Below, in pieces: positions 5,186 to 61,911 of a stretch of DNA of 64,000 nt (the stretch's first letter is position 1; each line of letters starts with the position of its first letter). Location of the stretch: the NCBI GenBank assembly GCA_039804165.1, contig JBDRZZ010000005.1:27290-91289 (forward strand), written 5' to 3'. The notes below the pieces were generated by a model. The model did no database searches. It saw only the letters and a program-made list of their open reading frames with translations, and had not been told where the DNA came from. The DNA is from a candidate division WOR-3 bacterium (GTDB lineage: Bacteria > Hydrothermota > UBA3072). The translations under genes were made by a program, and so were the position numbers.

Positions 5186-5215
5186 TTGACAAATAGAAAA
5201 AGTTTATTATATATT
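5186..5215 (+). promoter_or_regulatory. Sigma70-type promoter of the mannan phosphorylase operon
   Basis: TTGACA (5186-5191), a 17-nt spacer, then TATATA/TATATT. RBS AAGAGGAG and a GTG start at 5236. Confidence 0.45.
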
Positions 5216-5235
5216 CTCCGAAAAGAGGAGAATTT

Positions 5236-42043: not shown

Positions 42044-43245
42044 TTTCTATACCTCCTTAATTCGCTTAAAACTTCGTCAAAAGAAATATTACTCTTTGCC
42101 AAAGCAAAGGTCGCGAGGTATAATAAATTTGCAGCCTTTAATTTAATCTCTTCTTTATCTTTTCCTTCTAAAAGTTCCTTATTTAAGTCTTCATAGGAGA
42201 CTCGGTTTTTAGGATCTCTTATCTTGTCTTTAATTATTTTATACAATTCTTTCAAATTAAAGTTCTTCTCTCCAAAACAAGTGTAAGTTTCGAGGTGACA
42301 AGCAACTCCTTTTTGTTGAACTGTGGCAAGTAGGGTATCTCTATCACAATCAGCTCTTATTTTTAGAAGCTTTTGGATGTTTCCAGAAGTTTCTCCTTTC
42401 ATCCAAAGTTTTCCCCTCGAGCGAGAAAAATAGCACATATTACCTGTTTCAAAAGTTTTTCTTAAAGAATCTTTATTTGAATATGCAAGCATTAAAACTT
42501 GACCTTCATCATCTTGAGTAATTGTTGGTAAGAGGTCTGTTTTCCAATTAAGAGATTCTATAAACCCATCTTTTAAAGAAATTTTTCCTGTATATAGAGC
42601 CATTCCAAGTTGGACATCACATCCCAAGTTAGCTAATTCTTTTATTTCTTCAATTGTGCTTACACCTCCTGCTACTGTAACTTTATTTTTTGTCTCTTTT
42701 AACAATTTCTTTACAATCTCAAGGTTTATACCTTTTAAGGTTCCTTCTTTTTCTACACAGGTAAATAAAAATTCGGAGGCAAATTCTTCTAAATCTTTTA
42801 TCGCTTTATAAAGAGAAATTCCTGTAGAGTGCTTCCAACCTCTTGTTACAATTATTTCATTTAAAGCATCTATGGCTATTATTATTTTCCCCTTACCTAC
42901 TTTTTTTTTGAGCTCTTTTAAGAAGGTCTTGTTTATCTTATCATTTTCAAAAGCCTTAGACCCAATTATAACCTTTTTTGCCCCAAGAGAAATCATCTCT
43001 TTGGCTTTTTCTACACTTCTAATTCCACCTCCAACCCTGCATTCAGCTATTTTTAGGATATTTTTGATAATTTCTTTATTTTCTCCTTTTTCCATCGCGG
43101 CATCAAGGTCAATCACTGCGATTTCTCCATATTTATCGAATTCTTCTGCCAATTTTAGAGGTTGGCTATGTTCCAACATTTTTTCTTTTCCTCTTCTCAG
43201 TTGGACAGCTTTTCCTTCCATTAAATCAATAGAAGCCACAATCAT
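42040..43245 (-). CDS. Trifunctional fusion: ProFAR isomerase (HisA) + phosphoribosyl-AMP cyclohydrolase (HisI) + a short phosphoribosyl-ATP pyrophosphatase-like tail (HisE)
   Basis: Residues 1 to about 228 form the HisA barrel (MIVASIDLMEGKAVQLRRGK...VGGGIRS...). Residues about 235-327 are HisI (VLMLAYSNKDSLRKTFETGNMCYFSRSRGKLWMKGETSGN...CDRDTLLATV). Residues about 328-401 are HisE-like (LKELYKIIKDKIRD...SYEDL...AANLLYLATFALAKSNISFDEVLSELRRYRK). It is a single ORF in one frame. Confidence 0.8.
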   Translation of the reverse strand: MIVASIDLMEGKAVQLRRGKEKMLEHSQPLKLAEEFDKYGEIAVIDLDAAMEKGENKEIIKNILKIAECRVGGGIRSVEKAKEMISLGAKKVIIGSKAFENDKINKTFLKELKKKVGKGKIIIAIDALNEIIVTRGWKHSTGISLYKAIKDLEEFASEFLFTCVEKEGTLKGINLEIVKKLLKETKNKVTVAGGVSTIEEIKELANLGCDVQLGMALYTGKISLKDGFIESLNWKTDLLPTITQDDEGQVLMLAYSNKDSLRKTFETGNMCYFSRSRGKLWMKGETSGNIQKLLKIRADCDRDTLLATVQQKGVACHLETYTCFGEKNFNLKELYKIIKDKIRDPKNRVSYEDLNKELLEGKDKEEIKLKAANLLYLATFALAKSNISFDEVLSELRRYRK

Positions 43246-43994
43246 CTAACGGTAATCCCCCTTTCTTTTAGATATTTCTTTATATCTTTTATTTTATATT
43301 CACCATAATGAAGTAGAGATGCAAGTAAAACACTGGAAGCTTTTCCTTTTAGAATGGCAAGGGCTACTTGTTCGAGATTCCCTGCTCCTCCTGAGGCGAT
43401 TACGGGAATATTCACTGCTTCTGAGACCATTTTAGTGAGTTCAAGATCATAACCTTCTTTGGTTCCATCCTTATCTATTGAATTAAGAAGAATTTCTCCT
43501 GCTCCTAATTCTTCACCTTTTTTTGCCCATTCTATTACAGATAATCCTGAGTTAAATCTACCTCCGTGAGTATATGCTATCCATTTGTTCCCTTTTCTTT
43601 TAGCGTCTATTGAAAGCACGATACATTGAGAACCAAAAATTTTAGCTCCTTCACTTATTAAGGAGGGATTTTTTATGGCACTTGTGCAGATTGAGACTTT
43701 ATCTGCCCCAGCATTTAAGACTTTTCTTATATCTGAAACAGAACGGATCCCCCCTCCCACAGTTAGAGGGATAAAGACTTCTTCAGAGACCTTTTTTACA
43801 ACTTCTATCAAGATTTCTCTACTTTTGTAAGATGCCCCTACATCTAAAAACATAAGTTCATCTGCTCCATCTTTGTAATAAGTTCTTGCAAGTTCAACAG
43901 GGTCTCCAACGCTATTTAGATTTTTAAATTTCACTCCTTTTACAACCTTCCCATTTTCTACATCAAGACAAGGGATGATTCTTATCGCTAACAT
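43242..43994 (-). CDS. hisF: Imidazole glycerol phosphate synthase, cyclase subunit
   Basis: MLAIRIIPCLDVENGKVVKGVKF. Start taken at the internal ATG 43994, because the track start is a TTG four codons upstream. Confidence 0.9.
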   Translation of the reverse strand: MLAIRIIPCLDVENGKVVKGVKFKNLNSVGDPVELARTYYKDGADELMFLDVGASYKSREILIEVVKKVSEEVFIPLTVGGGIRSVSDIRKVLNAGADKVSICTSAIKNPSLISEGAKIFGSQCIVLSIDAKRKGNKWIAYTHGGRFNSGLSVIEWAKKGEELGAGEILLNSIDKDGTKEGYDLELTKMVSEAVNIPVIASGGAGNLEQVALAILKGKASSVLLASLLHYGEYKIKDIKKYLKERGITVR

Positions 43995-44587
43995 TTTTCT
44001 ACCCAATTTCTTAGGAGTTTTAGACCCATTTCTCCACTTTTTTCAGGATGAAATTGAACTCCTATTATATTACCTTTTTCTATTATTGAAGGATAATTCT
44101 TATAGTAATTGGTAGTAGCTACAATTATTTCAGAATCGATAGGTTCTACAAAATAACTGTGCAAAAAATAAAAATAAGTTTTATTTTTGATTCCTGTAAG
44201 GAGAGGAGAATTCTTTTTAATTTCTATTTCGTTCCATCCTATTTGAGGAACTTTACCTTTTTCAAATTTAAGACATTTCCCCTTAAAGATTCCAAAGCCT
44301 TTTGATTCTTTAGATTCCATACTTTCTTCGAAGAGAAGTTGCATACCAAGGCAGATGCCCAAAAAAGGTCTATTATTAATTAGCCAATTCTTTATTATTT
44401 CATAAAAACCATTTTCTTTTAATTTATTTATTGCTGCTTCAAAAGCCCCAACTCCTGGAAGAACAATTTTATTAATTTCTTTTAAATCTTTTGGCTCCGT
44501 TGCTACTATAGTCTCTTTTTTTAGAAAATTAAAAGCTTTCTTTACCGAGTGGAGATTCCCTGCACCATAATCAATTATTGCTATCAT
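43988..44587 (-). CDS. hisH: Imidazole glycerol phosphate synthase, glutamine amidotransferase subunit
   Basis: MIAIIDYGAGNLHSVKKAF...GICLGMQ...QFHPEKS. Confidence 0.9.
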   Translation of the reverse strand: MIAIIDYGAGNLHSVKKAFNFLKKETIVATEPKDLKEINKIVLPGVGAFEAAINKLKENGFYEIIKNWLINNRPFLGICLGMQLLFEESMESKESKGFGIFKGKCLKFEKGKVPQIGWNEIEIKKNSPLLTGIKNKTYFYFLHSYFVEPIDSEIIVATTNYYKNYPSIIEKGNIIGVQFHPEKSGEMGLKLLRNWVEKC

Positions 44588-45176
44588 TTTCTATTACTCC
44601 TTTTGTGCTCGGTATGTCTTCAATTGCTCTTTTATCCAATGAGCAAGCCATTTTCATTGCCTTTCCAAAAGCCTTAAAAATGGCTTCAATTTTGTGGTGG
44701 TCGTTTCTGCCATAAGGCATCCTTACTACAAGATTTGCCCCAAGATTTGTAGCGAATCCATAGAAGAAATCTTCGATAAGGTCTGTGTCTAAGTCTCCGC
44801 AAAATCTCCTTTTAAATTTTGCTTCAAATTGGAGATATGGTCTTCCGCTTATGTCCACAGCTACAACAGCAAGGGCCTCATCCATTGGATAAACAAAATA
44901 TCCTGCCCTATTAATTCCCCTTTTGTCTCCAAGAGCTTTTTTGAAGCTAAGACCAAGGGTAATCCCACAATCTTCTACAAGGTGATGTTGATCTACGTTT
45001 AAATCGCCAATTGCTTTTATTTGTAAATCAAAAAGACCGTGTTTAGCGAAATTCTCCAGGGAGTGATTTAAAAATCCAATTGGAGTTTCAATCTTGTAAG
45101 TTCCGCTCCCATCAATATTTAATTCAACTTTTATCTCTGTTTCTTTTGTTTTTCTTTCAACAGATGTTTTTCTCAT
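44571..45176 (-). CDS. hisB: Imidazoleglycerol-phosphate dehydratase (monofunctional)
   Basis: KTKETEIKVELNIDGSG...DQHHLVEDCGITLG...RNDHHKIEAIFKAFG. Confidence 0.9.
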   Translation of the reverse strand: MRKTSVERKTKETEIKVELNIDGSGTYKIETPIGFLNHSLENFAKHGLFDLQIKAIGDLNVDQHHLVEDCGITLGLSFKKALGDKRGINRAGYFVYPMDEALAVVAVDISGRPYLQFEAKFKRRFCGDLDTDLIEDFFYGFATNLGANLVVRMPYGRNDHHKIEAIFKAFGKAMKMACSLDKRAIEDIPSTKGVIENDSNN

Positions 45177-46221
45177 TTATAACCTCTCTCAATCTTTCAA
45201 TAAAAATTTTATTTTCTTTGGTTTTTCCAATTGTTACCCTCAATGTGTTTTTCAATCTTGGGTTGTCGAAGTATCTTAAAAGGACTCCCTTTTTATAAAG
45301 TTCTTCAAATAGTTCTTTTCCAGAAAGAAATTTTGTTTTAAAAAGGATAAAATTAGTGTAAGAAGGAATGGGTTCAATTCCTGGAAGATCTTGTAATTTG
45401 GAGAAAATATTCTCTCTTTCTTTTATGATTTTTTTTACAACCTCTTCTTTATATTCCTTATTTTTTAATAAAACCTCTCCCGCCACCTGGCTGAATATTC
45501 CCAAGGAGAAGGGAAGCTTTGCCTTTTGAATTTGGCTTGCTAAAGTTTCATTACTTAAAAGATAGCCGATTCTAAGGCCTGCCAGTCCAAAAGCTTTAGA
45601 TAGAGTTCTAATTATAACGAGATTTTCATATTTATTTAATAGGGGAACTGCGGTTTCCTTTGAGAATTCGAAATAAGCTTCGTCTAAAACTAAAACTCCA
45701 TTTATATTTTTTGCAATTTCTTCTATTTCTGGAAGAAAAATTGTTGTTCCTGTAGGATTGTTTGGGACTGCTAAAACGACCATTTTTGAATTTTTTCCTT
45801 TTTTGATTATTGATCTTATATCAAAACTGAAATCTTCTAAAAGGGGAACCTCTATTATTGTTAGATTCATAATTTTAGCAAGATAAGTGTATATTGGAAA
45901 ACTTGGAGAAACGAAAGTAACTTTATCTTTTTTTTCACAGAATGTTTGGAAGACTGCTTGAATTATTTCATTTGAGGCATTCCCTGCCACTATTCCATTT
46001 TTGGGAAAATTATTATATTTAGCAATTGCTTCAACTAAAGGATTGGCAGTTCGTGGCGGATATCTATTCCAGTTTATTTTAAGCATTCTTTTTAATATTT
46101 CTTTTTTTAAATTTAAAGGAACATCATAAGGAGACTCATTTTGATTTAGCTTTACTTCATATTTCTCTTGTGGAACTTTGTATTCTTTCAATTCCTGAAT
46201 TTCTTTTCTTACATATTTCAT
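45157..46221 (-). CDS. hisC: Histidinol-phosphate aminotransferase
   Basis: Class-II aminotransferase (NESPY...YPP...LSKAFGLAGLRIGY PLP lysine). First gene of the supraoperon, with RBS AGGTGGT. Confidence 0.85.
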   Translation of the reverse strand: MKYVRKEIQELKEYKVPQEKYEVKLNQNESPYDVPLNLKKEILKRMLKINWNRYPPRTANPLVEAIAKYNNFPKNGIVAGNASNEIIQAVFQTFCEKKDKVTFVSPSFPIYTYLAKIMNLTIIEVPLLEDFSFDIRSIIKKGKNSKMVVLAVPNNPTGTTIFLPEIEEIAKNINGVLVLDEAYFEFSKETAVPLLNKYENLVIIRTLSKAFGLAGLRIGYLLSNETLASQIQKAKLPFSLGIFSQVAGEVLLKNKEYKEEVVKKIIKERENIFSKLQDLPGIEPIPSYTNFILFKTKFLSGKELFEELYKKGVLLRYFDNPRLKNTLRVTIGKTKENKIFIERLREVINEKNIC

Positions 46222-46607: not shown

Positions 46608-47351
46608 ATGCTTAAATTAATAATTACCTCTGATTACGAAGAAATGAGTAAACTTGCCGCAAAATTAATAGCCGAAGAAATAAAGAAAAGAGAGCAAATT
46701 GTGTTAGGGCTCGCCACAGGAAATACGCCGCTTGGAACTTATAAAGAACTTATCAGATTACACAAAGAGGAGGGCCTTGATTTTTCAGATGTGATTACCT
46801 TTAACTTAGATGAATATCTTGGGCTTTCTCCAACAGATAGAAGAAGTTATAATTTTTATATGTGGGAAAATTTGTTTTATGAAATAAATATAAGACGAGA
46901 GAATGTTCATATTCCAAGAGGTGACACTTCAAATCCTGAAGAATTTTGTAAGTGGTATGAAGAGGAGATCAAGAGAGTGGGGGGGATTGATTTACAACTT
47001 CTTGGAATAGGTCGGGATGGTCATATTGGTTTTAATGAGCCAGGTTCGTCTTTTTCTGGGAGAACGCGGGTTAAAAAGCTTGCAGAAGTAACAATTAGAG
47101 ATAATGCGAGATTTTTTGATAATAAGATAGAAGATGTTCCTCATTATGCGATTTCAATGGGGATTGGCACAATTTTGGAAGCTGAAAAGATAATTCTTAT
47201 TGCAAATGGGGAACATAAAGCAGAAATTTGTGCCCGGTTTATAGAAGGTCCTGTTACAAAGCAGGTTCCTGCTTCTTCTTTACAATTGCATTCTGATGTT
47301 ACTGTGATTCTTGATAAAGCTGCGGCTTCCCGGCTTGAAAGAACAAGATGA
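46608..47351 (+). CDS. nagB: Glucosamine-6-phosphate deaminase
   Basis: VLGLATGNTPLGTYKELIRLHKEEGLDFSDVITFNLDEYLGL...GIGRDGHIGFNEPGS. Confidence 0.85.
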   Translation: MLKLIITSDYEEMSKLAAKLIAEEIKKREQIVLGLATGNTPLGTYKELIRLHKEEGLDFSDVITFNLDEYLGLSPTDRRSYNFYMWENLFYEINIRRENVHIPRGDTSNPEEFCKWYEEEIKRVGGIDLQLLGIGRDGHIGFNEPGSSFSGRTRVKKLAEVTIRDNARFFDNKIEDVPHYAISMGIGTILEAEKIILIANGEHKAEICARFIEGPVTKQVPASSLQLHSDVTVILDKAAASRLERTR

Positions 47352-48184
47352 AGGAAAGAAAAGTAAAAATTGCCTGGTATGGGAAACATTTTGGGGAAGA
47401 ACCACCTTTAGTGGGAGAGCTTTCTTTTGGGAATGGAAAAAATGGAGCTGGCACAATTTTCTTTTCCGGATGCAATCTTCATTGTGTTTTTTGTCAGAAT
47501 TATCAGATTTCTCAAGAAAATCTTGGGAGGGAATATTCCATTTTAGACTTAGCTGAGATTATGCTTGGGCTTGAGAGAGATGGTGCGCTTAATATTGATC
47601 TTGTTACTCCTACAATTTGGTGGAAAGAGATAAAAGAAGCTATTGTTATTGCTCGGAGAAAAGGGCTTTCTATTCCAATTGTTTGGAATTCGAATGCTTA
47701 TGAAAGTGTAAATATGCTTAGAGAAATGAAAGGTTTTGTTGATATTTATCTACCTGATTTTAAATATATGGATGATAAATTGGCAATGAAATATTCAAGA
47801 GCTTTTGGTTATTCTAAAATAGCTGAGAAAGCAATTAGGGAAATGTATAATCAGGTCGGTAATTTATATTTGAAGGACCAAATTGCAAAAAGAGGTTTAA
47901 TCATTCGGCATTTAATTCTCCCTGGGTATTTAGATAATAGTTTTTGTGTTCTAAAGAAAATTGCAGAGATTGATAAAGAGATTTATGTAAGCTTAATGAC
48001 TCAATATTACCCTCTGTATCTTGCAAAAAATTTTCCTGAAATAAATCGTTCTCTTACTGAAGATGAAATTATCTACTCAGAGAATAAGAGACTGGAACTA
48101 GGGCTTTTAAATGGTTGGAACCAAGAAAGAGGTTCTGGAGAGGTATTTTTGCCAGACTTTAGGAAACAAAATCCCTTTTCCTAA
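47348..48184 (+). CDS. Radical SAM protein (PflA/PflX-like activating-enzyme family)
   Basis: CNLHCVFCQN is a CxxxCxxC motif. The start overlaps the nagB stop (ATGA). Confidence 0.7.
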   Translation: MKERKVKIAWYGKHFGEEPPLVGELSFGNGKNGAGTIFFSGCNLHCVFCQNYQISQENLGREYSILDLAEIMLGLERDGALNIDLVTPTIWWKEIKEAIVIARRKGLSIPIVWNSNAYESVNMLREMKGFVDIYLPDFKYMDDKLAMKYSRAFGYSKIAEKAIREMYNQVGNLYLKDQIAKRGLIIRHLILPGYLDNSFCVLKKIAEIDKEIYVSLMTQYYPLYLAKNFPEINRSLTEDEIIYSENKRLELGLLNGWNQERGSGEVFLPDFRKQNPFS

Positions 48185-48375: not shown

Positions 48376-49470
48376 TTAACTTTTGGGGATAAAGAGGGTG
48401 AATTTAGAACCTTTATCCTTTTCGCTTTCTACTTCGATCCAACCACCCATTCCTCTTATTACGCTGTTGACAAAGAAAAGTCCTATTCCTGAGCCTCCTT
48501 CGTCTCCATTTTCTTCTGTTTTTGTTGTAAAGAAAAGTTCAAAGATTTTTTCTTTTACCGCAGGTTCCATACCGCATCCATTATCAGAAACTGATATAGC
48601 GACATATTCTTTTTCCTTTTCGTCTTTCTCAAGGCGGAAGATATTTCTGACTTCAAAGTGAATTTTACCCTCGTTTGATTCTCCAATTGCATCTTTTGCG
48701 TTCATTAGTAGGTTTATAAGCACTTGATGAAGTTGGTCTGGGTCTCCTATTACTAAGGGTTCTGGATCAAAATAAGAAGCTGTAATTGTTAATTTTTTGG
48801 ATAATGCTTGTTGACCTAAATGAACTACTTCTTTTACCACATCAATTACATTAAAGAGTTTCTTCTCTCCTCTAATTTTTCTTGTGTTAGAGAGAAGAGC
48901 TTTTAAGAGATTTTTTATTCTCCTTACCCCATCCGCACCTAATTGGACGTCCTCAAGGACTTCAGGGTCCTTTATGTATTCTAAGGCAGCATTAATTCCA
49001 TATGAAACTTCCATTAATAAATTGTTTGCTTCATGGGCTATTCCCCCAATAAGTTGTCCAATTGTTGCAAGCCTTCTTGAAGAAAGCATCCTTTTTTGGA
49101 GTATTTCTAATTTTGAGACATCTTTTGCCATTGATAAACCCCTAATTTGTGAACTCAAATTAAGGAAAATAGAACTCCATTCGTAAATTCTTTTACTTCC
49201 AAATTCAGGCTTTATTTCTATATTTTGGATGATTATAAAAGGCTCTTTTTCATCAAAGGCTTCTCCTTCAATATTTCCCTCTTTTTGAGCTTTAATTGAT
49301 TCCTGTAACTCACGCATAAGTGTTGGTTCTAAGATTTCCTTTATTGGTTTTCCAAATTCTTGTTCTGCCCTTCCATTCCAGAAAAGAATTTTGTAATCTT
49401 TGTCCCAAGCGATAAGAGGAACAGGAATAAAATCAAGTAAAAATCCCAATTCTTTTTCTATCTCTATCAT
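48376..49470 (-). CDS. Cytoplasmic PAS-domain sensor histidine kinase (orphan, no adjacent response regulator)
   Basis: PAS-like N-terminus, H-box LIGGIAHEANNLL, then N/G1/G2 boxes (DNGCGM, GSGIGL). No TM segments. Confidence 0.8.
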   Translation of the reverse strand: MIEIEKELGFLLDFIPVPLIAWDKDYKILFWNGRAEQEFGKPIKEILEPTLMRELQESIKAQKEGNIEGEAFDEKEPFIIIQNIEIKPEFGSKRIYEWSSIFLNLSSQIRGLSMAKDVSKLEILQKRMLSSRRLATIGQLIGGIAHEANNLLMEVSYGINAALEYIKDPEVLEDVQLGADGVRRIKNLLKALLSNTRKIRGEKKLFNVIDVVKEVVHLGQQALSKKLTITASYFDPEPLVIGDPDQLHQVLINLLMNAKDAIGESNEGKIHFEVRNIFRLEKDEKEKEYVAISVSDNGCGMEPAVKEKIFELFFTTKTEENGDEGGSGIGLFFVNSVIRGMGGWIEVESEKDKGSKFTLFIPKS

Positions 49471-49487
49471 AAAAGGTTTCTAAAAAT

Positions 49488-49540
49488 AAAGGGAAGAGAG
49501 TAGGACTTTCTACTCTCTAAACCCTTTATTTTTGTTTTAT
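49488..49540 (-). terminator. Rho-independent terminator after the Hfq-like gene
   Basis: aaaggg-aag-agagagtag-gacttt-ctactctct-aaa-cccttt, followed by T-runs on both strands. Confidence 0.55.
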
Positions 49541-49542
49541 TT

Positions 49543-49740
49543 TTATTCCTCCCAGTCTTTCACTTCAAGATGAGAAATCGCACGATGGGAGACGAAAACA
49601 GATCGGTTGTTCGCCATTGGGGTTTCCACTTTTAGAAATAAACCTCTATCATTTCTTCCAGTTACAGTCCCTTCAAACTTTGATCCATCTATCGTTATTA
49701 TCTTTACATGTCTTCTTAACCCCCTTTTCCAGTCCACCAT
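49543..49740 (-). CDS. Divergent Hfq-like / Sm-fold small protein (65 aa)
   Basis: VKIITIDGSKFEGTVTGRNDRGLFLKVE aligns with the Sm1 motif, and VFVSHRAISHLEV matches the Hfq Sm2 motif YKHAIS. RBS AAAGGAGGAG. Confidence 0.5.
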   Translation of the reverse strand: MVDWKRGLRRHVKIITIDGSKFEGTVTGRNDRGLFLKVETPMANNRSVFVSHRAISHLEVKDWEE

Positions 49741-49764
49741 TTCTCCTCCTTTATTTTTTACTTT

Positions 49765-49902
49765 TTAACAATAACCTACAGTTCCATCACCGCTTAAGAC
49801 AATCATTCCAATTTCTGGATTACTTAAATTTTCTAATTTTGTTCCCTTTTTCAAAGACCCAACAAAACTTAATAAGATTAATAATACATTTAAAGTAACC
49901 AT
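49765..49902 (-). CDS. Unannotated 45-aa peptide with a hydrophobic N-terminus (MVTLNVLLILLSFVGSLKKGTKLENLSNPEIGMIVLSGDGTVGYC)
   Basis: ATG preceded by AAAGGAGGT at 7-nt spacing and TAA stop. Lies between a sigma54 promoter and the Hfq-like gene. Too short for the ORF track. Confidence 0.45.
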   Translation of the reverse strand: MVTLNVLLILLSFVGSLKKGTKLENLSNPEIGMIVLSGDGTVGYC

Positions 49903-49938
49903 ACGTACACCTCCTTTTATTCTTTTGTAATTTTTATA

Positions 49939-49955
49939 CGCAATACTCGTTCCAA
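49939..49955 (-). promoter_or_regulatory. Sigma54 (-24/-12) promoter
   Basis: Minus strand TTGGAACGAGTATTGCG matches TGGCAC-N5-TTGC with one mismatch and exact GG/GC spacing. An IHF-like site AATCAAATACTTA lies at 49974-49986. Confidence 0.5.
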
Positions 49956-50007
49956 AAAGATTAAGTTATTGAAAATCAAATACTTATATTGTTAAAAAGA
50001 GAAAATT

Positions 50008-50025
50008 TGTGACATTTATGTCATA
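50008..50025. promoter_or_regulatory. Palindromic upstream activator site 1 (TTGTGACA-N4-TGTCATAAAA)
   Basis: tgtgacatttatgtcata is near-dyad-symmetric (GTGACA/TGTCAT), about 55 bp upstream of the -24 element. Confidence 0.45.
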
Positions 50026-50072
50026 AAAAATTGCTTAATCTTTAGAAAGTATTGAAATTGCTGAATTTTTAT

Positions 50073-50090
50073 TGTGACAAAAATGTCATA
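50073..50090. promoter_or_regulatory. Palindromic upstream activator site 2 (second copy)
   Basis: tgtgacaaaaatgtcata, with the same flanks (ttGTGACA...TGTCATAAAA), 65 bp from copy 1 and immediately after the activator-gene stop. Confidence 0.45.
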
Positions 50091-50114
50091 AAAGGGACAG
50101 AAGAGGCGTAAAAT

Positions 50115-53100
50115 TTACTTTTTTATTTCAAATTCTTTAATTAGTCTATATAGATGTCTTTTTGAAATTTTTAAGTTTTCTGCGGTTTTTTTTATATCCC
50201 AATTTGTTTCTTCAAGAGCTAAAAGGATTGTTTCTCTTTCCCATTTTTTCTTTATCTCTGGCCATGAGACCTTTTTCTCTTCTATTTTTTCTCTTTTTAC
50301 TTCTTCTGGTAGGTCTTCTTCTTTTATATATTCTCCTTTACATTTAATTATAGAAATTTCTACAATATTTCTTAATTCTCTAATATTTCCGGGGAAGGGA
50401 TAATTTTTCAAAATCTCAATTGCTTCTTCTGTAAAGCCCTTTATCTTCTTTTCTCTTTTTTCTCTAAATATTTTTAAATAATGTTCAAGTAAAATGGGGA
50501 TATCAATTTTTCTTTCCCTTAGGGGAGGGATTGATATGTTTATTTGGTTTAAACGATAAAGGAGGTCTTCTCTAAATTCTCTTAAGAAAGCCATTTGTTC
50601 GATATCCTTATTTGTTGCAGAAATAATTCTAACATCGACCTTTCTTATTTCTGTTTCTCCCACCCTTCTAATTTCTCCAAGGTCTGTAACTCGCAAGAGT
50701 CCTGCTTGGATTGAAGGAGGAGCATCTCCAATCTCATCCAAGAAGAGAGTTCCTCCGTTTGCCTCTTCGCACATTCCCTTTTTGTCTTTTATTGCTCCGG
50801 TGAATGAACCCTTTTTGTGACCAAATAATTCACTCTGAAGCAAGGTTTCTGTTAGGGAACTACAATCCACAGTTACAAAGGGCCTATTTTTTCTTTTGCT
50901 TAAAGAGTGGATCGTTCTTGCAATAAGTTCTTTTCCAGTTCCTGTTTCTCCTGTGATTAAAACATTTACATCTGTTGGAGCAATTTCTTCTATTGTTTTA
51001 TATATCTTTTGCATTGGTTCTGAAATCCCAATTATTGAATGGAAAGAATGTGGAGGGGAAGTCATTTTTCTTAACCGAGCTAACTCCTCTTTTATTTGGT
51101 AAAGGAGATCTCCTTTTGCAAAAAGAATGCCGAGAATCCTTCCAATTGACTGTAAGAACTCTTTATCAGAAGGAAGGAAAATGTCTTTTTTTATTGTTGA
51201 ATCAAGATAAAGAACTCCATAAATTTTGTTTTTATAAGTTATTGGAACACATAAAATTGAACGGATTTTATTTCTCTGAATGGAATCCATTTTGTAAAAT
51301 CTTTCATCTATTGTTGCATCTCCTGTGATTATGACTTCTCCTTTTATAACTTTTTCAGTTATTGTTTTTGAGATCTTCCTTGCGTCCTGGAGAGTTATTT
51401 CATCTATGTTGTAAGAAGAAACAATAATATTTTTATCATTCTCTTTTAAAATTAGAGCTCCTCTTTCTGCATTTAGAAATTCTGTAATTGTGGATAAAGC
51501 TTCATCAAACCTTTTTTCCGAGTCAATTGAAGAAAGGAGTTTACTTATTTCGTCATAGGTGTAGATATATCCTTTTCTTAATGAAGTTTTTCTAGCGCAT
51601 TCTGCAAGAAGTTTGGTTGTTTCATTTAAGAAAAGTTCTGATTTTAGCTCCTTAAAAACTTCCTCTGCTTTTTTTAATTCTTCAATTGCTTCTTCTATTC
51701 TATTTTTTTGAAGTAAAATGGTTCCTTTTTTCAATTGTGTTTGAGCAATGTGGAAAGGTAGGCTAATCTTAGAGAAAAGCTTAATTGCTTTATCGCAAAA
51801 CCTTGGTTCCTCGTTTATAAAACCCCAAGAAGAAAGAAGCTTCCCTTTTTCAAAATTTGATTTTAAGGAAGAGATTTTCTCAAAATAAGGTTTTAGAGTT
51901 TCTACTGCCTCTTCTTTTTTTCCTTCTAAGAATAAAACTTCCGAAAGTTGTCGAGCAATATCTCTTTCATCTCTTGGGTCTCCTTTTGTTCTTTTTAAAA
52001 CCTCTCTAAAAATCTTCTCAGCTTCTTTTAGTTCTCCTTTCCATCTAAGAATTGTTCCTTCTAAGTCTCTTAAGTCATATTTTTCTTCTTTTAATTCATT
52101 TCTTAATCTTTCAACCTCAAGCCAATTTCCTTTATATAGCTCTCCTTCAAGTAATTTTGCCTTTAAGAAAGGTTGAAGCTTTCCATGCCTATTTTTAAAA
52201 TCTTCTATTTTCTCTTTTAATTTTTCCCAAAAACCAGTATTAAGATAAAGAATAGATAAACTTGTTAGACAAGGAGATTCAAGTTCTCCAATTTTTAATT
52301 TTTTGAAAATTGAAAGGGCCTCTTCAAGTTGTTTTAAAGCTTCCTTATAGTTATCAAGGCGTAAAAGGGAAATTCCTTTATATGTTATAAATATTGCTTC
52401 ATTTACAAAATCTCGTTCTTTTTTAGATATCTCAAGACATTTCTCAAAATATTCAATTGCCTCTTCATGTTCTTCTTTCTGTTGATTCGCAATCCCTCCA
52501 AGGGTTAAGAAATGTCTTTTTAAGGTAGGGGAGAGGTCTTTTTTTAGTTCCTCTTCAACAATTTTTAATGTTTTCTCAAAATCTCCTTTTGCGCAGAGAA
52601 ACCTTCCTTCAACAAATTTTAATTTTGGTGGTAATTCTTTTGCTTCATTTTTGTATTCCAAAATGAGTTTTTCTGCCTCTTCTATTCTTTCCTGTCTTAC
52701 AAGAAAATAACCTAACCAATAAATCCCTTCTTCTTTTAATTTTCCCTTTGCAAATTTAATTCCTTCTCTAAAATATTTTTCAGCTTCTTCTTTATTCTCA
52801 AGCCTATCAAAAATAGCTCCAATTTTTAATAAATAAAAAGGATTCTCTTTTTTCTTTTCTAAAAGTTCTTTGTAAATGGATAGGGCTTCATTTATCTTTC
52901 CTCCTAATTCAAAAACTCTTCCAAGAACCATCCGAAGAATTGGCTCATCTTTTAAAAGAAGAGCTTCTTGTAAAAATTTTCCAGCTTCCTGATAATCTTT
53001 CTCTTTTATTTTCTTTTTTGCTATTTTTATTAAAGATTCTCTATATTCTTTTTCTTTACCTAAGTCTTTTTCAAGAAGATGTAAAGACTCAGGAGTGGAG

Positions 53101-54740
53101 ATTCTTTTTTTTATTCTTTTATAAAGTTCTTCCTTTTCTTTTTGGGTCAGTTTTTTATAGAAGAAATCTCTTGTCCAATTAGAAAGAAATTGAATTCCTT
53201 TCTTATCTTTTTTTAATATGTTCTTTGAGGAAAGAGAATTAACCAAAGTGTAAGGATTTTTTATTTCAAAAATTGAAATTGAATTTAAAGGGAAGCTTTC
53301 CTGGAAAATGGATAGTTTTTTTAATAGTTCCTTTTCTTCTAAGGGAAGCTTTTCGAGTTTTGCTTTTAAATTTTCTTCAATACCTTTTGGTAAGGAAATA
53401 GATAAGGGAAGTTTCTCATTAAAGAAAATTTCATCTCCTTTTCTTTCAATTGCTCCTTCTAAAATGAGATTCTCGATTAGCTGATTTAAAATAAGAGGAT
53501 TCCCTTCGCTTTGTTTAAGGAGAAAAGAAGTTAGCTCTTTTTTATTTATAATCTTATTAGGAAAATTTTTGTTAATAATGAATTCAATTTCTTCTTTGTT
53601 TAAGGGAGAAAGGGTAAAAGAAGTTGTAATATCTTCTAATTCTTCTAATTCGTTTTCTTTATCAGGGCTGCTTATCACAATTAAAATAGGGCTTAACCTT
53701 ATTGTTGTTTTATTTTCTTTTAAGATAACTTTTATTTCCTGAAGAGAAGCATTATCAATAAATATAACAATGGGTTCTGTTATTCTTTCTTCTTTAAAGA
53801 AAAGATGGATTTCTCCGGAACTCATTTCTTTTATGTTTATTCCCTTTATAAGAGCTCTTATTTTGAATTCCCTTAAAAGAGCTGTTTTGCCAATTCCTTT
53901 TTCTCCTTTTATTAATAAAATGTGAGGCTCAGGCAGGTTGGAAAGATAAAACTCGAAATCCTTTATTTCTTTTTCTCTTCCAGAAAAAATTGTAATAAAT
54001 GAGAGCTTTCTTTCTTCTATTGTGGTTCCAAGAAGAATTTCTCTTTTTACATCTTCTATATTCTTAATCCTATTTTCAATTTGGGGTTCAATCATCCTCT
54101 GAATTAGAAAGTTTAATTCCTCTGGAATTAAAGGATTATATCTTTCTGGTGGGGGAAGACGGTTTTTTAGTTTTTCCTCTATTATTTTTGACAGGTTTCC
54201 TTTAAATGCTTTTTCTCCTGTTAAAATCTCGTAAAGAATTATGCCAATAGAGTAAATGTCAGAAGAAAAAGAAGGGACTTCTGTAAAGGCTTCTGGAGAT
54301 GTATATGTAGGAGTAATTATTTCCGGATTATATCCTGGATCGATCAACTTGACGTTATTTCTTTCATCCACAAATATGTGATTTGGTTTAAGATCGCCAC
54401 AGACAATTCCACGAGAATGTAGAACTGAAAGAGCATCAAGAATGGAGTTAAGAATATTTTTGATTTTGTCGAAATCTTCTTTTTGAGACGGTTTTACTTT
54501 GAAGACTTTGTCGATTGTTGGAGAAGAGATTTTTTCCATTGAAAAGCCACATTTTTCACCATCTTCAAACCACTCGTAAACAGTTACAAAATGAGGGTCT
54601 CTAATTTCAGAGAGAAGTTTAAATTGTTCGTAAAGTAAATCCTTCTTTAGAAGTTCTCCAACTTTGTATACAATTTCTCCTTTTTCGTAAATCTTTGCAA
54701 AATTTCCTTTTTTAATAAGATTAAATTTAGTTAAATCCAT
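50115..54740 (-). CDS. Giant multidomain sigma54-dependent transcriptional activator: Ser/Thr-kinase-like domain, AAA_16/STAND-type P-loop NTPase, TPR array, GAF, sigma54-interaction AAA+ domain and Fis-type HTH
   Basis: Kinase-like motifs (CGDLKPNH, DPG, SPE, DIYSIG). Walker A GEKGIGKT. About 500 aa of TPR-like repeats. GAF (ILCVPITYKNKIYGVLYLD). EBP core (VLITGETGTGKE, GSFTGA, LFLDEIGD). C-terminal HTH (ISKRHLYRLIKEF). No receiver domain. Confidence 0.85.
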   Translation of the reverse strand: MDLTKFNLIKKGNFAKIYEKGEIVYKVGELLKKDLLYEQFKLLSEIRDPHFVTVYEWFEDGEKCGFSMEKISSPTIDKVFKVKPSQKEDFDKIKNILNSILDALSVLHSRGIVCGDLKPNHIFVDERNNVKLIDPGYNPEIITPTYTSPEAFTEVPSFSSDIYSIGIILYEILTGEKAFKGNLSKIIEEKLKNRLPPPERYNPLIPEELNFLIQRMIEPQIENRIKNIEDVKREILLGTTIEERKLSFITIFSGREKEIKDFEFYLSNLPEPHILLIKGEKGIGKTALLREFKIRALIKGINIKEMSSGEIHLFFKEERITEPIVIFIDNASLQEIKVILKENKTTIRLSPILIVISSPDKENELEELEDITTSFTLSPLNKEEIEFIINKNFPNKIINKKELTSFLLKQSEGNPLILNQLIENLILEGAIERKGDEIFFNEKLPLSISLPKGIEENLKAKLEKLPLEEKELLKKLSIFQESFPLNSISIFEIKNPYTLVNSLSSKNILKKDKKGIQFLSNWTRDFFYKKLTQKEKEELYKRIKKRISTPESLHLLEKDLGKEKEYRESLIKIAKKKIKEKDYQEAGKFLQEALLLKDEPILRMVLGRVFELGGKINEALSIYKELLEKKKENPFYLLKIGAIFDRLENKEEAEKYFREGIKFAKGKLKEEGIYWLGYFLVRQERIEEAEKLILEYKNEAKELPPKLKFVEGRFLCAKGDFEKTLKIVEEELKKDLSPTLKRHFLTLGGIANQQKEEHEEAIEYFEKCLEISKKERDFVNEAIFITYKGISLLRLDNYKEALKQLEEALSIFKKLKIGELESPCLTSLSILYLNTGFWEKLKEKIEDFKNRHGKLQPFLKAKLLEGELYKGNWLEVERLRNELKEEKYDLRDLEGTILRWKGELKEAEKIFREVLKRTKGDPRDERDIARQLSEVLFLEGKKEEAVETLKPYFEKISSLKSNFEKGKLLSSWGFINEEPRFCDKAIKLFSKISLPFHIAQTQLKKGTILLQKNRIEEAIEELKKAEEVFKELKSELFLNETTKLLAECARKTSLRKGYIYTYDEISKLLSSIDSEKRFDEALSTITEFLNAERGALILKENDKNIIVSSYNIDEITLQDARKISKTITEKVIKGEVIITGDATIDERFYKMDSIQRNKIRSILCVPITYKNKIYGVLYLDSTIKKDIFLPSDKEFLQSIGRILGILFAKGDLLYQIKEELARLRKMTSPPHSFHSIIGISEPMQKIYKTIEEIAPTDVNVLITGETGTGKELIARTIHSLSKRKNRPFVTVDCSSLTETLLQSELFGHKKGSFTGAIKDKKGMCEEANGGTLFLDEIGDAPPSIQAGLLRVTDLGEIRRVGETEIRKVDVRIISATNKDIEQMAFLREFREDLLYRLNQINISIPPLRERKIDIPILLEHYLKIFREKREKKIKGFTEEAIEILKNYPFPGNIRELRNIVEISIIKCKGEYIKEEDLPEEVKREKIEEKKVSWPEIKKKWERETILLALEETNWDIKKTAENLKISKRHLYRLIKEFEIKK

Positions 54741-54846: not shown

Positions 54847-55527
54847 ATGGGTAAAATAATTGTGGTTGTAGATGATGAGGTTGATATTGTAGAGCTTATT
54901 TCTGTTAACCTGGGAAAAGTAGGCTTTAAAGTTGAAGGTTTTTATAATGCAGGTGACTTTTTAAATTTTCTTAAAAAGAGAACCCCTGACCTTATTATTC
55001 TTGATTTAATGTTGCCTGACGCGGATGGTTTTGAGGTTTGTAAATATTTAAAATCTGAGGAGAAATATGGAAATATTCCAATTATAATGGTAACAGCAAA
55101 AGGTGAAGAGGTGGATAAGATTTTAGGTCTTGAGATTGGAGCTGATGATTATATCACAAAGCCTTTTTCTACAAGGGAATTAATTGCAAGGGTTAAGGCG
55201 GTTTTAAGAAGGTTTGAGAAAGAGGATAAATTTGAGGTTATTAAGATAGGGGGAAACGTGGAAATTCTTCCTAATAAGTATAAGGTTATTGTTTCTGGCA
55301 AAGAAATTGAGCTTACTTCAACCGAGTTTAAAATTTTGGTTTTGCTTGCTAAGAGGAAAGGGTGGGTTTTTTCCCGAGACCAGATTCTAAATTATCTATA
55401 TGAAGGGGAGAGACTCGTATTTGACAGAACTATTGATGTTCACATAGCACATCTTAGGGAAAAACTTGGCAAATATGGAGGTTTTATTAAAAGTGTGAGG
55501 GGTATAGGATATAAAATAGAAGAATGA
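54847..55527 (+). CDS. phoB: OmpR/PhoB-family response regulator
   Basis: REC domain (VVVDDE...DLIILDLMLPDADG...ITKPF) plus a winged-helix output domain. Followed by phoR and pst genes. Confidence 0.85.
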   Translation: MGKIIVVVDDEVDIVELISVNLGKVGFKVEGFYNAGDFLNFLKKRTPDLIILDLMLPDADGFEVCKYLKSEEKYGNIPIIMVTAKGEEVDKILGLEIGADDYITKPFSTRELIARVKAVLRRFEKEDKFEVIKIGGNVEILPNKYKVIVSGKEIELTSTEFKILVLLAKRKGWVFSRDQILNYLYEGERLVFDRTIDVHIAHLREKLGKYGGFIKSVRGIGYKIEE

Positions 55528-57260
55528 AGAATATATTTTTTAGAATCTTTTTTGGGCAGTTAATTTTGATTAGTTGTGTTTCTTTATTTTTTGTTTTGTT
55601 TTCTTTTGGTTTAGTAAAAAGGTATTATGTTAATACTCTTACCGAAAACCTTGAAAAAATTGCTCTTTCTCTTAGAAGGACCTTAACTCCTTATCTTGTT
55701 TGTGAAAAATTCTCTTCTTTAGATTCTCTTGCAAAGTATATTGGAAAAGAGATAAAGGTGAGAATTACTGTAGTTGACTTAAAAGGGGTTGTTCTTGCTG
55801 ATTCCGAAGAGAATCCTGAGAAAATGGAAAACCACGGAACAAGGCCAGAAATATTACAAGCTTTTTATGGAAAAACCGGGATTTCTCTTCGTTTTAGCAA
55901 AACTTTTGGTAAAGATATGTTATATGTTGCTATTCCTATTAAAGATGAAAAAGGTGAGGTGTTTGGAGTTATAAGGTTGAGTTTATTTTTCACTCAGATA
56001 GATGAGCTAATAGGTGCTTTTGTTAGAAATTTACTTATTGTTGTTTTTTCGCTTTTATTTTTTTCTATTTTTGTATCTTTTTTTTATTCTAAATCTCTTG
56101 CAAAACCCATTGGTGAGCTTGTAAGTATAGCCGATGAAGTAGCTAAAGGTAATTTTGAACTTGAGGTTTTTGTAGAAGGTAAGGGAGAATTAAAGAGGCT
56201 TGCCGAAAGCTTTAATAGTATGCTCACTCGTATTAGAGAATTGGTTTCTAAATTATCAGAACAAAGAGATTCTCTTGATATTGTTATTTCTTCTATTGGA
56301 GAAGCTCTTCTTGTGATTAACTCGGATGAAAAGATAGTGATTGTTAATGATAGTTTTAAAGAGATTTTTAATGTAAGTGAAGTAAAAAATAAATATTATT
56401 GGGAGGTTTTTAGAGAACCTCAGTTTGGAGAAATTATAGAAGAAGTAAAAAAGAAAAGAGATAGCGTAGTAAAGGAAATAAAAATTGGAGAGAGATATTT
56501 TATATGCACTGCTAACTTTTTAAAAAAATATAATGAAGTTGTAATTACTCTTCACGAAATAACCGAGAAAAAGAAAACCGAATTAATGAAAAAAGATTTT
56601 ATTTCAAATGTCTCTCATGAACTCCGGACACCTTTAACTGCTATTAAGGGTTTTGTTGAAACTCTTTTAGAAACTCAAAAGGGTGATGGTAAGAGATATC
56701 TTGAAATAATAAGAAAGCAAACAGATCGTCTCATTAATATTGTTAAAGATTTACTTAGACTTTCTGAACTTGAAGAAATTGAAGAAGGGAAGATTAAAAT
56801 TGATTTTTCACAGGTGGATTTAAAGAAATTGATAAAGGATGTTTTAAGTATTTACGAAAAAGAAATGAAAGATAAGGGCTTGCGCTTGGTTGTTTCTATA
56901 GATAGAAGCGTTTCTAAGATTAAAGGTGATCCATTTAAACTCGAGCAGCTTTTTATGAATTTAATTGAGAATGCTATTAGGTATACAGATAAAGGAGAAA
57001 TAAAAATAAATGCAAGAAGAGAAAAGAGAGCGATTGTTATTGAAGTTTCTGATACAGGAATTGGAATATCCGAGGAACATTTACCAAGAATTTTTGAAAG
57101 ATTCTACGTTGTGGATAAGTCTCGTTCCCGTGAATATGGAGGGACAGGTCTTGGGCTATCCATTGTGAAGCATATTGTCCAATTACATCAAGGAGAGATA
57201 AGGGTTGAGAGTAAAAAAAATAAAGGAACAAAATTTACCATTATTTTGCCGGAGAATTAG
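55524..57260 (+). CDS. phoR: Phosphate-regulon sensor histidine kinase (PhoR-like: TM, HAMP, PAS, HisKA, HATPase)
   Basis: H-box SHELRTPLTAIKGF and ATPase boxes (DTGIGI, GGTGLGLSIVK). Overlaps phoB with ATGA. Confidence 0.8.
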   Translation: MKNIFFRIFFGQLILISCVSLFFVLFSFGLVKRYYVNTLTENLEKIALSLRRTLTPYLVCEKFSSLDSLAKYIGKEIKVRITVVDLKGVVLADSEENPEKMENHGTRPEILQAFYGKTGISLRFSKTFGKDMLYVAIPIKDEKGEVFGVIRLSLFFTQIDELIGAFVRNLLIVVFSLLFFSIFVSFFYSKSLAKPIGELVSIADEVAKGNFELEVFVEGKGELKRLAESFNSMLTRIRELVSKLSEQRDSLDIVISSIGEALLVINSDEKIVIVNDSFKEIFNVSEVKNKYYWEVFREPQFGEIIEEVKKKRDSVVKEIKIGERYFICTANFLKKYNEVVITLHEITEKKKTELMKKDFISNVSHELRTPLTAIKGFVETLLETQKGDGKRYLEIIRKQTDRLINIVKDLLRLSELEEIEEGKIKIDFSQVDLKKLIKDVLSIYEKEMKDKGLRLVVSIDRSVSKIKGDPFKLEQLFMNLIENAIRYTDKGEIKINARREKRAIVIEVSDTGIGISEEHLPRIFERFYVVDKSRSREYGGTGLGLSIVKHIVQLHQGEIRVESKKNKGTKFTIILPEN

Positions 57261-57310
57261 GTTTGTAAGTTTTGTTTTTATAGGGTCGATTAATAAGTCA
57301 ATTTTTAATC

Positions 57311-57349
57311 TTAACAAATACTTAATACTGAATTAATAAGAAATTAACC
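57311..57349 (+). promoter_or_regulatory. Pho-box-like array upstream of the porin gene: four 6-bp direct repeats at 11-bp periodicity
   Basis: TTAACA-aatac-TTAATA-ctgaa-TTAATA-agaaa-TTAACC. This matches the Bacillus-type PhoP box TT(A/T/C)ACA with 5-nt spacers. Confidence 0.5.
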
Positions 57350-57441
57350 ACTCTATTTATGGTAGATTGTGAAGACTAAGTTGTATGTTTGACTTCATTA
57401 AATGGTGTATTATAAACCTTTAACTCAAAAAGGAGGTTTTT

Positions 57442-58446
57442 ATGAAGAAGTTTAGTTTAGTAGTCGGTTGGAGTTGCCTGATTTTATTGATTGTTGCTCC
57501 TATAGGTCTAAAGGGAGGAGAAACGAAAATCTCTATGACGTTGTGGAATAGATATACTGCTGAAAGAAGCGAAGGGAAATTTACCAAAAGTGCATTTACC
57601 TTAGAGAGAGGTTATTTTGGTGTTGAACCCACTTTTACAGATAGGATAAAAGGTAGATTCACAATTGATGTTTTCTCTTCTGATAAATTTGCAGATGGAG
57701 CTGGACTTAAGTTGAAATACGCTTATCTTAATTTTACGCAAGTTTTGCCAATACCAGAGAGCGATATCCAGGTTGGGTTACTAAAGCATTATTTTGGAAC
57801 TGTCTATGACTGGGAGTATATTTCTATTCGGAAAGCCCTGGAGGACGAGAGAAAAGTAGCTTCATCCGCAGATTATGGACTTGCTCTTTTTGGTTATATT
57901 CCGCATGGTTTTGGAGAATATGCAATTTCAATTTTAAATGGAGAAGGATATAATAAGACAGGGAGTGCCCTTGACAAAGAACCTGAAATTGCAGGTAACT
58001 TGAGAGTTATTCCTTTACCAGGATTAACTATTGGAGGCTCTATTCTTTATGAAAATAAGGAAAGTGATCGATTTGCCTATGTAGGTGTAGGACGTATTGC
58101 AAGAGGTCCATTTGAAATCTGGGGAGAGTATCTTATTCAAGATAAAAGCGATATTAAGAGTAATGGTTGGATGATTATGCCAATCTTAAAGCTTCAGAAT
58201 TTAGCAAAATTGGATGTGGACATTATTGGAAGATTTGATAAATGGGACGGCAATACCGAATTAGAAAATGATGGAGATATGACTATTACCTGTGGGATAA
58301 ACTGGAATCTCGTTAGAGACGAAAAGAATAAATCTTGTGTTTTCCTTCAAATTCAGGGAGAGAAGACTATTTTCGAAAATGAAGCTATAAGTGATATTAA
58401 TCAGCTTTTGATTCAACTCCAATGGAAATTCAGCAATACCATATAA
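57442..58446 (+). CDS. Outer-membrane beta-barrel porin, possibly phosphate-selective
   Basis: Signal peptide, alternating amphipathic beta-strands and a C-terminal aromatic residue region (LQWKFSNTI). Pho-box upstream and pstS downstream. Confidence 0.45.
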   Translation: MKKFSLVVGWSCLILLIVAPIGLKGGETKISMTLWNRYTAERSEGKFTKSAFTLERGYFGVEPTFTDRIKGRFTIDVFSSDKFADGAGLKLKYAYLNFTQVLPIPESDIQVGLLKHYFGTVYDWEYISIRKALEDERKVASSADYGLALFGYIPHGFGEYAISILNGEGYNKTGSALDKEPEIAGNLRVIPLPGLTIGGSILYENKESDRFAYVGVGRIARGPFEIWGEYLIQDKSDIKSNGWMIMPILKLQNLAKLDVDIIGRFDKWDGNTELENDGDMTITCGINWNLVRDEKNKSCVFLQIQGEKTIFENEAISDINQLLIQLQWKFSNTI

Positions 58447-58453
58447 AAGACTC

Positions 58454-58492
58454 TTAACAAAAACTTAACATTTAATTAATGGTTTTTTAATG
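58454..58492 (+). promoter_or_regulatory. Second Pho-box-like array upstream of pstS
   Basis: TTAACA-aaaac-TTAACA-tttaa-TTAATG-gtttt-TTAATG with exact 11-bp periodicity, about 30 nt upstream of the pstS RBS. Confidence 0.5.
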
Positions 58493-58522
58493 ATTGGATA
58501 GAATAATAAAAGGAGGTTTAAA

Positions 58523-59341: not shown

Positions 59342-59394
59342 AGTCAAATACCTCCTTATTTATGGGTTTGTTGTTGACACAGCTGAAAAAAACC

Positions 59395-59422
59395 AAGAGG
59401 TGGGGGGTAGGCCCCACCTCTT
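59395..59422 (+). other. GC-rich 11-bp perfect stem-loop between pstS and pstC. Likely an mRNA-stabilising or partial-terminator hairpin
   Basis: aagaggtgggg-ggtagg-ccccacctctt. It stands out in an AT-rich genome. pstC downstream lacks an obvious SD. Confidence 0.5.
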
Positions 59423-59433
59423 AAATAATAAAA

Positions 59434-61900: not shown

Positions 61901-61911
61901 GAGGTGTTAAA

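Follow-up and report, generated by a model that had tools for sequence, protein, structure and literature searches.

A predicted sigma-54-type operon for an Sm-like protein and a hypervariable peptide in a WOR-3 bacterium, with features resembling a peptide signal and receptor pair

In an uncultivated candidate division WOR-3 bacterium, we found a giant sigma-54 activator next to a two-gene operon encoding a near-invariant protein of predicted Sm/Hfq-like fold and a 45-residue peptide with a hypervariable tail. The tail differs between near-identical strains and, in a few pairs of loci taken from metagenome contigs, the region around it diverges together with the TPR domain of the activator, which looks like a peptide signal and receptor pair. 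We tentatively propose, as the best of several readings though less likely than not, a peptide and TPR-receptor autoinduction circuit with the Sm-like protein as its conserved output. The stretch analysed, referred to here as the window, is 64 kb of a WOR-3 MAG, and it was compared with about 50 related WOR-3 loci fetched from genomes and metagenomes.

Organization and conservation of the module

All features of the module lie on the minus strand. The first gene, at 50115–54740, encodes a 1541-aa activator with the domain order Ser/Thr kinase, STAND NTPase (Walker A at aa 279), TPR, GAF, sigma-54 AAA+ (GSFTGA at aa 1311) and HTH, supported by Pfam hits to Sigma54_activat (6e-67), Pkinase (1.5e-23), TPR_12 (9e-26), GAF (7e-14) and AAA_16. 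The 212-nt intergenic region that follows holds two palindromes of the form TATGACAT-N3-TGTCACA, which are putative activator binding sites (UAS), the distal one at 50073–50090 (TATGACATTTTTGTCACA; core 50074–50087) and the proximal one at 50008–50025 (TATGACATAAATGTCACA; core 50009–50022). Their GACAT-N4-GTCAC cores are the only ones in the window. A sigma-54-type −24/−12 element, TGGAAC-N5-TTGC (TGGAACGAGTATTGC), lies at 49940–49954 and is the only intergenic match of this type in the window, with an inferred transcription start near 49928. It has the −24 GG and −12 GC elements with the spacing of TGGCAC-N5-TTGC. Next comes the 45-aa ORF at 49765–49902 (ATG; MVTLNVLLILLSFVGSLKKGTKLENLSNPEIGMIVLSGDGTVGYC), with AAAAGGAGGT 6 nt before its start codon, then a 24-nt gap with AAAGGAGGAG just before the second ATG, and the 65-aa ORF at 49543–49740. 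A terminator scan gave a stem at 49495–49518 plus a T-run, and the extended hairpin, with flanking A and T tracts, spans 49482–49533 at −27.8 kcal/mol. The ATG of a cytoplasmic PAS histidine kinase (48376–49470; Pfam PAS and HATPase_c, no membrane segment) comes directly after the T-run, without a Shine–Dalgarno site.

The initial annotation, which described a sigma-54 promoter driving two small ORFs with their Shine–Dalgarno sites and a terminator, was therefore correct in its observations, in both coordinates and motifs. Its one error was to call the peptide unannotated, as GenBank lists it as hypothetical protein ABIN61_03550 and the 65-aa protein as ABIN61_03545. A search of Rfam returned no credible RNA family in 49300–50200.

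To determine whether these features are more than chance, we examined their conservation in the related loci. Every locus with sequence upstream of the small protein has the peptide ORF, a 1539–1565-aa activator ORF is present in the window and in the 17 related loci with enough upstream flank, and loci with enough downstream sequence have the kinase, so that the order activator, peptide, small protein, kinase is conserved in every related locus with enough flank. In 30 distinct upstream regions, TGGAA(C/T)-N5-TTG(C/T), two or three GACAT-N4-GTC(A/C)C palindromes and GGAGGT are conserved while the intergenic bases between them diverge. TGGAA and TTG are invariant, 40–53 nt before the ATG, although most of these regions have TTGT at −12; the distal palindrome is conserved at about −178 from the ATG, and the proximal one at about −112 in nearly all of the 30. 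The terminator retains its hairpin with different stem sequences. Both ORFs show purifying selection, with a pN/pS of 0.20 for peptide codons 1–19 and 0.05 for the small protein, at pS 0.62. No RpoN box is present in the 64-kb window or the loci, which is uninformative for the whole genome, and the sigma-54 dependence of the promoter remains inferred from sequence. The claim that the peptide and the 65-aa protein are the sole outputs of the activator is uncertain, because the kinase always follows directly after the terminator.

The 65-aa protein has a predicted Sm-like fold but no demonstrated relationship to Hfq

The initial annotation proposed that the 65-aa protein is an Hfq paralog with motifs resembling Sm1 and the Sm2 motif YKHAI, and named the absence of a predicted Sm fold as grounds for rejection. 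AlphaFold2, using a shallow alignment of six sequences, gave a model with a pLDDT of 76.9 that contains five strands in a strongly bent antiparallel barrel of about 60 residues. The top 50 Foldseek matches among solved structures are almost all Hfq (TM 0.62–0.70, E 2e-3 to 1e-2), with superposition at 0.9–1.5 Å over about 50 residues. The protein also has a G-x4-G Sm1-like pattern, an AIS in the last strand, and a basic patch before strand 1, where Hfq has its arginine rim. However, the model contains no helix, and residues 1–8, where Hfq has its N-terminal α-helix, are coil with low pLDDT. The family signature is (V/I)F(V/I)SHxAISH(L/I), so that SH(K/R)AIS replaces YKHAIS, and the Sm2 signature [YF]KHAI with the K56/H57 proximal pocket of Hfq is absent; the window protein has VSHRAISH, and no [YF]KHA[IV] occurs anywhere in the window or the loci. 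The aromatic residue of the proximal uridine pocket is not conserved, as inferred from a manual alignment. At the sequence level, there was no Hfq hit in Pfam or NCBIfam, phmmer and hmmsearch against the PDB found nothing relevant, and hhalign against five approximate Hfq sequences gave a probability of 2%, although the Sm1 region aligns in register. No canonical hfq was found in the window, which again does not inform on the whole genome. Thus, the Sm-like fold is supported, but membership in the Hfq family is not.

The 65-aa protein has very few relatives, with six clusters among 5.8 billion proteins. An exhaustive profile search of 1.84 billion representatives added six small proteins, and its large hits are FG-GAP-like repeat proteins that we treat as spurious. 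Three family members match the C-terminal 55 positions of Pfam DUF6982, a family of 134 positions and unknown function, at E 3e-4 to 4e-2, but the scores of 21.5, 19.5 and 14.5 bits are all below the gathering threshold of 24.5 bits. DUF6982 is not mentioned in any paper of the library searched.

The interpretation in the initial annotation, a conditionally induced RNA-binding or post-transcriptional response module, was only partly supported. In this view, the activator would sense a non-peptide cue through its kinase, STAND, TPR or GAF domains and induce an Hfq-like RNA chaperone together with a small membrane peptide that has no signalling role. The predicted fold, the basic N-terminal patch and the extreme conservation of the small protein are consistent with it. 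Besides the lack of sequence homology, of the N-terminal helix and of the YKHAI motif, it does not explain the strain-level hypervariability of the peptide tail, its terminal Cys, or the joint divergence with the TPR block described below, and we consider it unlikely.

The peptide carries a conserved helix and a hypervariable tail

The property missed by the initial annotation is the variability of the peptide. A profile search retrieved 70 peptide clusters at 90% identity, compared to six for the adjacent small protein, and neither Pfam, NCBIfam nor PADLOC has a family for either of them; the PADLOC hits of the activator are generic domain hits. The peptide begins with a hydrophobic segment, MVTLNILL(I/V)LLGFINSLNK, for which AlphaFold2 predicts a helix at residues 2–21 (pLDDT 93 and 74) and disorder for the rest. 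The mean hydrophobicity of 0.5 and the low hydrophobic moment of 0.22–0.28 suggest that the helix is TM- or signal-like rather than amphipathic. A moderately conserved middle region ends in (I/V)VL(S/C) and is followed by a tail of 4–15 residues, which in the window is GDGTVGYC (codons at 49768–49791). The tails are composed of 36% Gly, 14% Asp and 12% Pro. Among 65 parsed peptides, there are 60 distinct tails, and 62 of the 65 peptides end in Cys and three in Tyr. As the Cys codon alternates between TGT and TGC, the residue itself is selected.

The tail evolves faster than synonymous sites of the neighbouring gene. Twenty locus pairs whose small-protein genes are 97–100% identical in DNA carry different tails, for example GGGGSTYC versus IDGTHC and GGGGGPGLC versus GGGGGWWC. 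Between two of the fetched loci, L006 and L009, 17 of 44 mismatches fall in 36 nt covering the tail and the start of the 3′ UTR. One explanation would be an unconstrained, low-complexity spacer, or the target of a mutator such as a diversity-generating retroelement, in which case the variability would have no specificity function. The pN/pS of 0.92 in the six codons before the Cys, the tail composition, the predicted disorder, and an Avd-like gene next to the peptide in some loci, including L006, are compatible with this reading. However, tails differ where the flanking genes are 100% identical, the divergent patch continues into the 3′ UTR and the promoter, and the window has no Avd gene. No template-like second copy longer than 16 nt was found in the window or within 8 kb in 10 loci, and none of the gene tables of the fetched loci lists a reverse-transcriptase domain. 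We therefore rejected the retroelement, and regard this explanation as a whole as very unlikely.

A conserved leader-like N-terminus followed by a hypervariable core could also indicate an antagonistic peptide, such as a bacteriocin, a RiPP or a toxin, whose tail evolves in an arms race, with the small barrel protein as immunity factor or chaperone. A C-terminal Cys occurs in some modified peptides such as AviCys-containing lanthipeptides, the G/S/C-rich tails resemble heterocyclisable cores, and a radical SAM gene lies nearby in some loci. However, this gene is convergent and is absent from loci L007 and L008, and only the activator, the small barrel protein and the kinase are conserved, with no modifying enzyme, transporter or immunity gene consistently linked. 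The small protein is predicted to be all-β, not a PqqD-like RRE, and is near-invariant, whereas an immunity protein would be expected to co-vary with the toxin. As the TPR co-variation is also left unexplained, this possibility appears improbable.

Divergence of the peptide and TPR regions between near-identical loci

To look for a partner of the tail, we compared closely related loci. The cleanest pair, L043 and L044, are 16-kb loci that differ at 0–2 positions per 200 nt over most of their length. Inside the module, only two blocks diverge strongly. One is nt 4401–5800 of the locus, corresponding to activator aa ∼600–1020, i.e. the TPR region (51681–52940 in the window, aa ∼601–1020), at 26–44 differences per 200 nt with one internal 200-nt window at 6, and the other is the promoter plus peptide gene, at 57 and 19 differences per 200 nt. 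The N-terminal half of the activator is mildly raised (5–11 per 200 nt), while the GAF–AAA–HTH segment between the two blocks, the small protein and the kinase are essentially identical. Another strongly divergent patch lies outside the module, at about 12.2–12.8 kb of the locus. In the TPR block pS is 0.33–0.57 and pN is 0.09–0.15, apart from one 60-aa bin (aa 841–900) at pS 0.19 and pN 0.013, compared to a pS of 0–0.08 in aa 1021–1541, so these are old alleles that have been exchanged rather than new mutations. A second pair, L021 and L036, shows 38% nucleotide divergence in aa ∼911–1020 against 2–6% in GAF/AAA/HTH, again with different tails, and three further pairs show the trend more weakly; all are from metagenome assemblies that may be strain mosaics, and TPR blocks could diversify for an unrelated reason. 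Two loci that share a tail (DELYC) in different backgrounds lie on contigs that end just upstream of the peptide and lack the activator. As the kinase is nearly identical in L043 and L044 although their tails differ, it was rejected as the co-evolving receptor.

A hypervariable signal region and a hypervariable sensor region inside an otherwise conserved module is the pattern known from pherotype systems. In PlcR–PapR of the Bacillus cereus group, the C-terminal heptapeptide and the TPR regulatory domain determine group specificity (PMC2441798).

A tentative model for the module

In the model that we tentatively favour, the activator would bind the upstream palindromes and, when active, drive sigma-54 transcription of a bicistronic mRNA for the peptide and the Sm-like protein. 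The peptide would be a precursor or anchor whose tail carries the specificity and is recognised by the TPR block of the same activator, feeding back on its own promoter, and different strains would carry matched tail and TPR alleles as pherotypes. The Sm-like protein, probably an oligomeric ring that binds nucleic acid or a conserved partner, would carry out the downstream response. Our analysis establishes that the genes are real, that the promoter and UAS are conserved, that the small protein has a predicted Sm fold, that the tail is hypervariable, and that the peptide and TPR blocks diverge jointly in the few pairs above. In contrast, sigma-54 dependence, binding of the tail to the TPR domain, processing, export and re-sensing between cells, the sign of the feedback, ring formation and RNA or other binding by the Sm-like protein, and any role of the nearly invariant terminal Cys, which the model does not explain, are inferences.

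The module differs in several respects from RRNPP-type systems such as PlcR–PapR. In both, a small ORF lies next to a regulator with TPR repeats, and, if the model holds, both would share specificity at the C-terminal end of the precursor, joint diversification of peptide and TPR alleles, and autoinduction. However, the putative receptor here is a 1541-aa kinase–STAND–TPR–GAF enhancer-binding protein rather than a 30-kDa HTH–TPR protein, the phylum is WOR-3 rather than Firmicutes, the tail ends in Cys, and a co-transcribed Sm-like protein is predicted. No canonical Sec signal was found, as the hydrophobic segment has no positively charged n-region and is followed by lysines, which fits a cytoplasmic tail better. 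No exporter, processing protease, or oligopeptide importer such as Opp is linked to the module, and no transporter is in conserved synteny.

This topology is also compatible with a private membrane tether or anti-activator, inserted with its N-terminus out and its tail in the cytoplasm, where the tail would dock on the TPR domain and hold or release the activator, much as PspA, PspB and PspC control PspF, without cell-to-cell signalling. The terminal Cys would act as a redox or metal switch, and the conserved thiol does suggest chemistry rather than recognition. The TM-like helix, the absence of linked export or import genes and the TPR–tail co-variation would fit direct binding of this kind. 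However, a private intracellular pair has no obvious reason to diversify between near-identical strains, the helix is only about 17–20 residues long, and the tandem tail units of a distant relative (see below) fit a released product better; we therefore consider this alternative unlikely as well.

Among other systems, AgrD of the agr autoinducing-peptide systems is likewise a precursor of about 45 aa with an N-terminal membrane-associating helix, a Ser/Cys alternation at a conserved position followed by a variable segment, and strain-level specificity groups. The peptide has no Pfam AgrD match, its helix is TM-like rather than amphipathic, its variable part is the extreme C-terminus and ends in Cys rather than being followed by an acidic tail, no AgrB-like or AgrC gene is present, and the neighbouring kinase is cytoplasmic. 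Sigma-54 activator operons encoding their own modulator, such as PspF–PspA and HrpS–HrpV, share an enhancer-binding protein controlling a small adjacent operon whose products could feed back on the activator, but there is no homology to PspA or HrpV, and the candidate partners here are a hypervariable peptide and a predicted Sm-fold protein.

Peptide pheromone systems with cytoplasmic TPR receptors are so far essentially confined to Firmicutes, and enhancer-binding proteins sense small molecules, phosphorylation or protein partners but are not known to sense strain-specific peptides. If the tail–TPR pairing holds, the module would extend peptide pherotype signalling to a deep, uncultivated lineage and add a new receptor class, a STAND-type sigma-54 activator. 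The inferred logic of a peptide read by a TPR receptor with pherotypes is known; the receptor class, the phylum, the Cys-terminated tail and the Sm-fold output are not. Our literature searches on DUF6982, on WOR-3 with sigma-54 and on RRNPP with sigma-54 found no description of this module. In its boldest form, which is not excluded but which we regard as unlikely, this would be a previously undescribed kind of peptide-based kin or quorum signalling, in which the variable tail of a 41–51-aa precursor is read directly by the TPR sensor, matched alleles are exchanged among strains, and a new Sm-fold protein family is the dedicated effector. The module also defines two unnamed protein families, the Cys-terminated hypervariable peptide and the strongly constrained Sm-fold protein, which could be a new bacterial branch of Sm-like regulators.

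Related and paralogous modules

A more distant WOR-3 clade (loci L047, L056 and L057) keeps the same four genes, but its tail is GGGPNDGGGG(F/V)D(E/K)IPG(R/G)SS, without Cys. In another distant relative, L052, the ORF upstream of the small protein and the PAS kinase consists of at least four tandem 14-aa units, GGPNDGGG(V/I)VDELR, which has the look of a multi-copy signal precursor.

We also found a paralogous module, type B, with a 1518-aa activator that is 60% identical to that of the window and is transcribed divergently from a TGGAA(T/C)-N5-TTG(T/C) promoter with different palindromes (TGCGAA-N7-TTCGCA). In type B the small protein comes first and there is no peptide, and the small protein is followed by a signal-peptide-bearing 549-aa repeat protein and then a lipase-like protein with a type IX secretion sorting domain. 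The Sm-like protein is thus the constant output of this activator family, which is in line with the RNA-chaperone reading, and the peptide is an addition specific to type A, the module of the window. A peptide is therefore not required for this activator family, which weighs against the peptide–receptor model. One MAG carries both module types.

Genomic context of the module and its variants in related loci

To explore the surroundings of the four-gene module (activator, peptide, small protein and kinase), we first compared its neighbours in the window with those in the related loci (designated L001 onwards). In the window, with flanks at 54847–62577 (+) and 43242–46221 (-), the module sits between a PhoB/PhoR-like two-component pair, followed by a run of same-strand ORFs that we took for a pst-phoU phosphate-uptake cluster, and a histidine biosynthesis cluster; these identities are inferred from ORF translations and gene order only. 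The upstream neighbours differ in other loci, where TonB-ExbBD or radical SAM/SPASM genes are found; therefore, the four-gene module is the conserved unit. A 278-aa radical SAM protein (47348–48184, +; CX3CX2C, without a SPASM domain) lies convergent with the kinase in the window and is present in the same place in L001, L003, and L058–L060, but is absent in L007 and L008. This is probably just synteny, although the protein remains a candidate peptide modifier. At the downstream end of the operon (window 49470–49482, and the equivalent position in all loci), the kinase ATG follows the terminator T-run within about 10–25 nt and has no Shine–Dalgarno sequence; for the transcription and translation of the kinase, read-through, a promoter overlapping the terminator, or a leaderless mRNA are all possible.

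The region between the activator and the peptide promoter is not the same in all relatives. In some of them (L006, at 6759–7130, and L009–L011) it contains a gene for a 123-aa Avd-like/23S rRNA intervening-sequence protein, while in L005 (474–782) a PDDEXK_3 gene sits there instead, and the window has neither. No reverse transcriptase domain is listed in the gene tables, and no template repeat was found nearby. Furthermore, many metagenome contigs (L007, L008, L016, L034, and L058–L060) stop just upstream of the peptide gene or inside the activator, which fits strain-level heterogeneity of the promoter, peptide, and TPR regions breaking the assemblies. In the related locus L052 (1–178), the ORF upstream of the small protein and the PAS kinase is made of at least four tandem 14-aa units, GGPNDGGG(V/I)VDELR, and runs off the contig start; it may be a multi-copy precursor variant of the distant-clade tail GGGPNDGGGGVDKIPG.

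Profile matches of the small protein and a paralogous module

In the profile search with the small protein, large FG-GAP/VCBS-like repeat proteins (hits P0083–P0089) matched profile positions 25–66 several times each (E 7e-10 to 2e-4), with the match running through a motif like RNDAGTF..VQEPMG. We provisionally treated these hits as compositional or spurious. A paralogous module, here called type B, was found in L049 (1440–10761) and also in L050, L051, and L053–L055. In this module a 1518-aa activator of the same family is transcribed divergently, followed by a sigma-54-like promoter with TGCGAA-N7-TTCGCA palindromes, and the small Sm-like protein is the first gene, with no peptide. Next come a secreted 549-aa protein with GNVGIGT..KLDV repeats and a 795-aa lipase-like protein with a type IX secretion sorting domain. 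The same MAG (GCA_964461395.1) also carries a type A module, i.e. the peptide-containing form, at locus L017.
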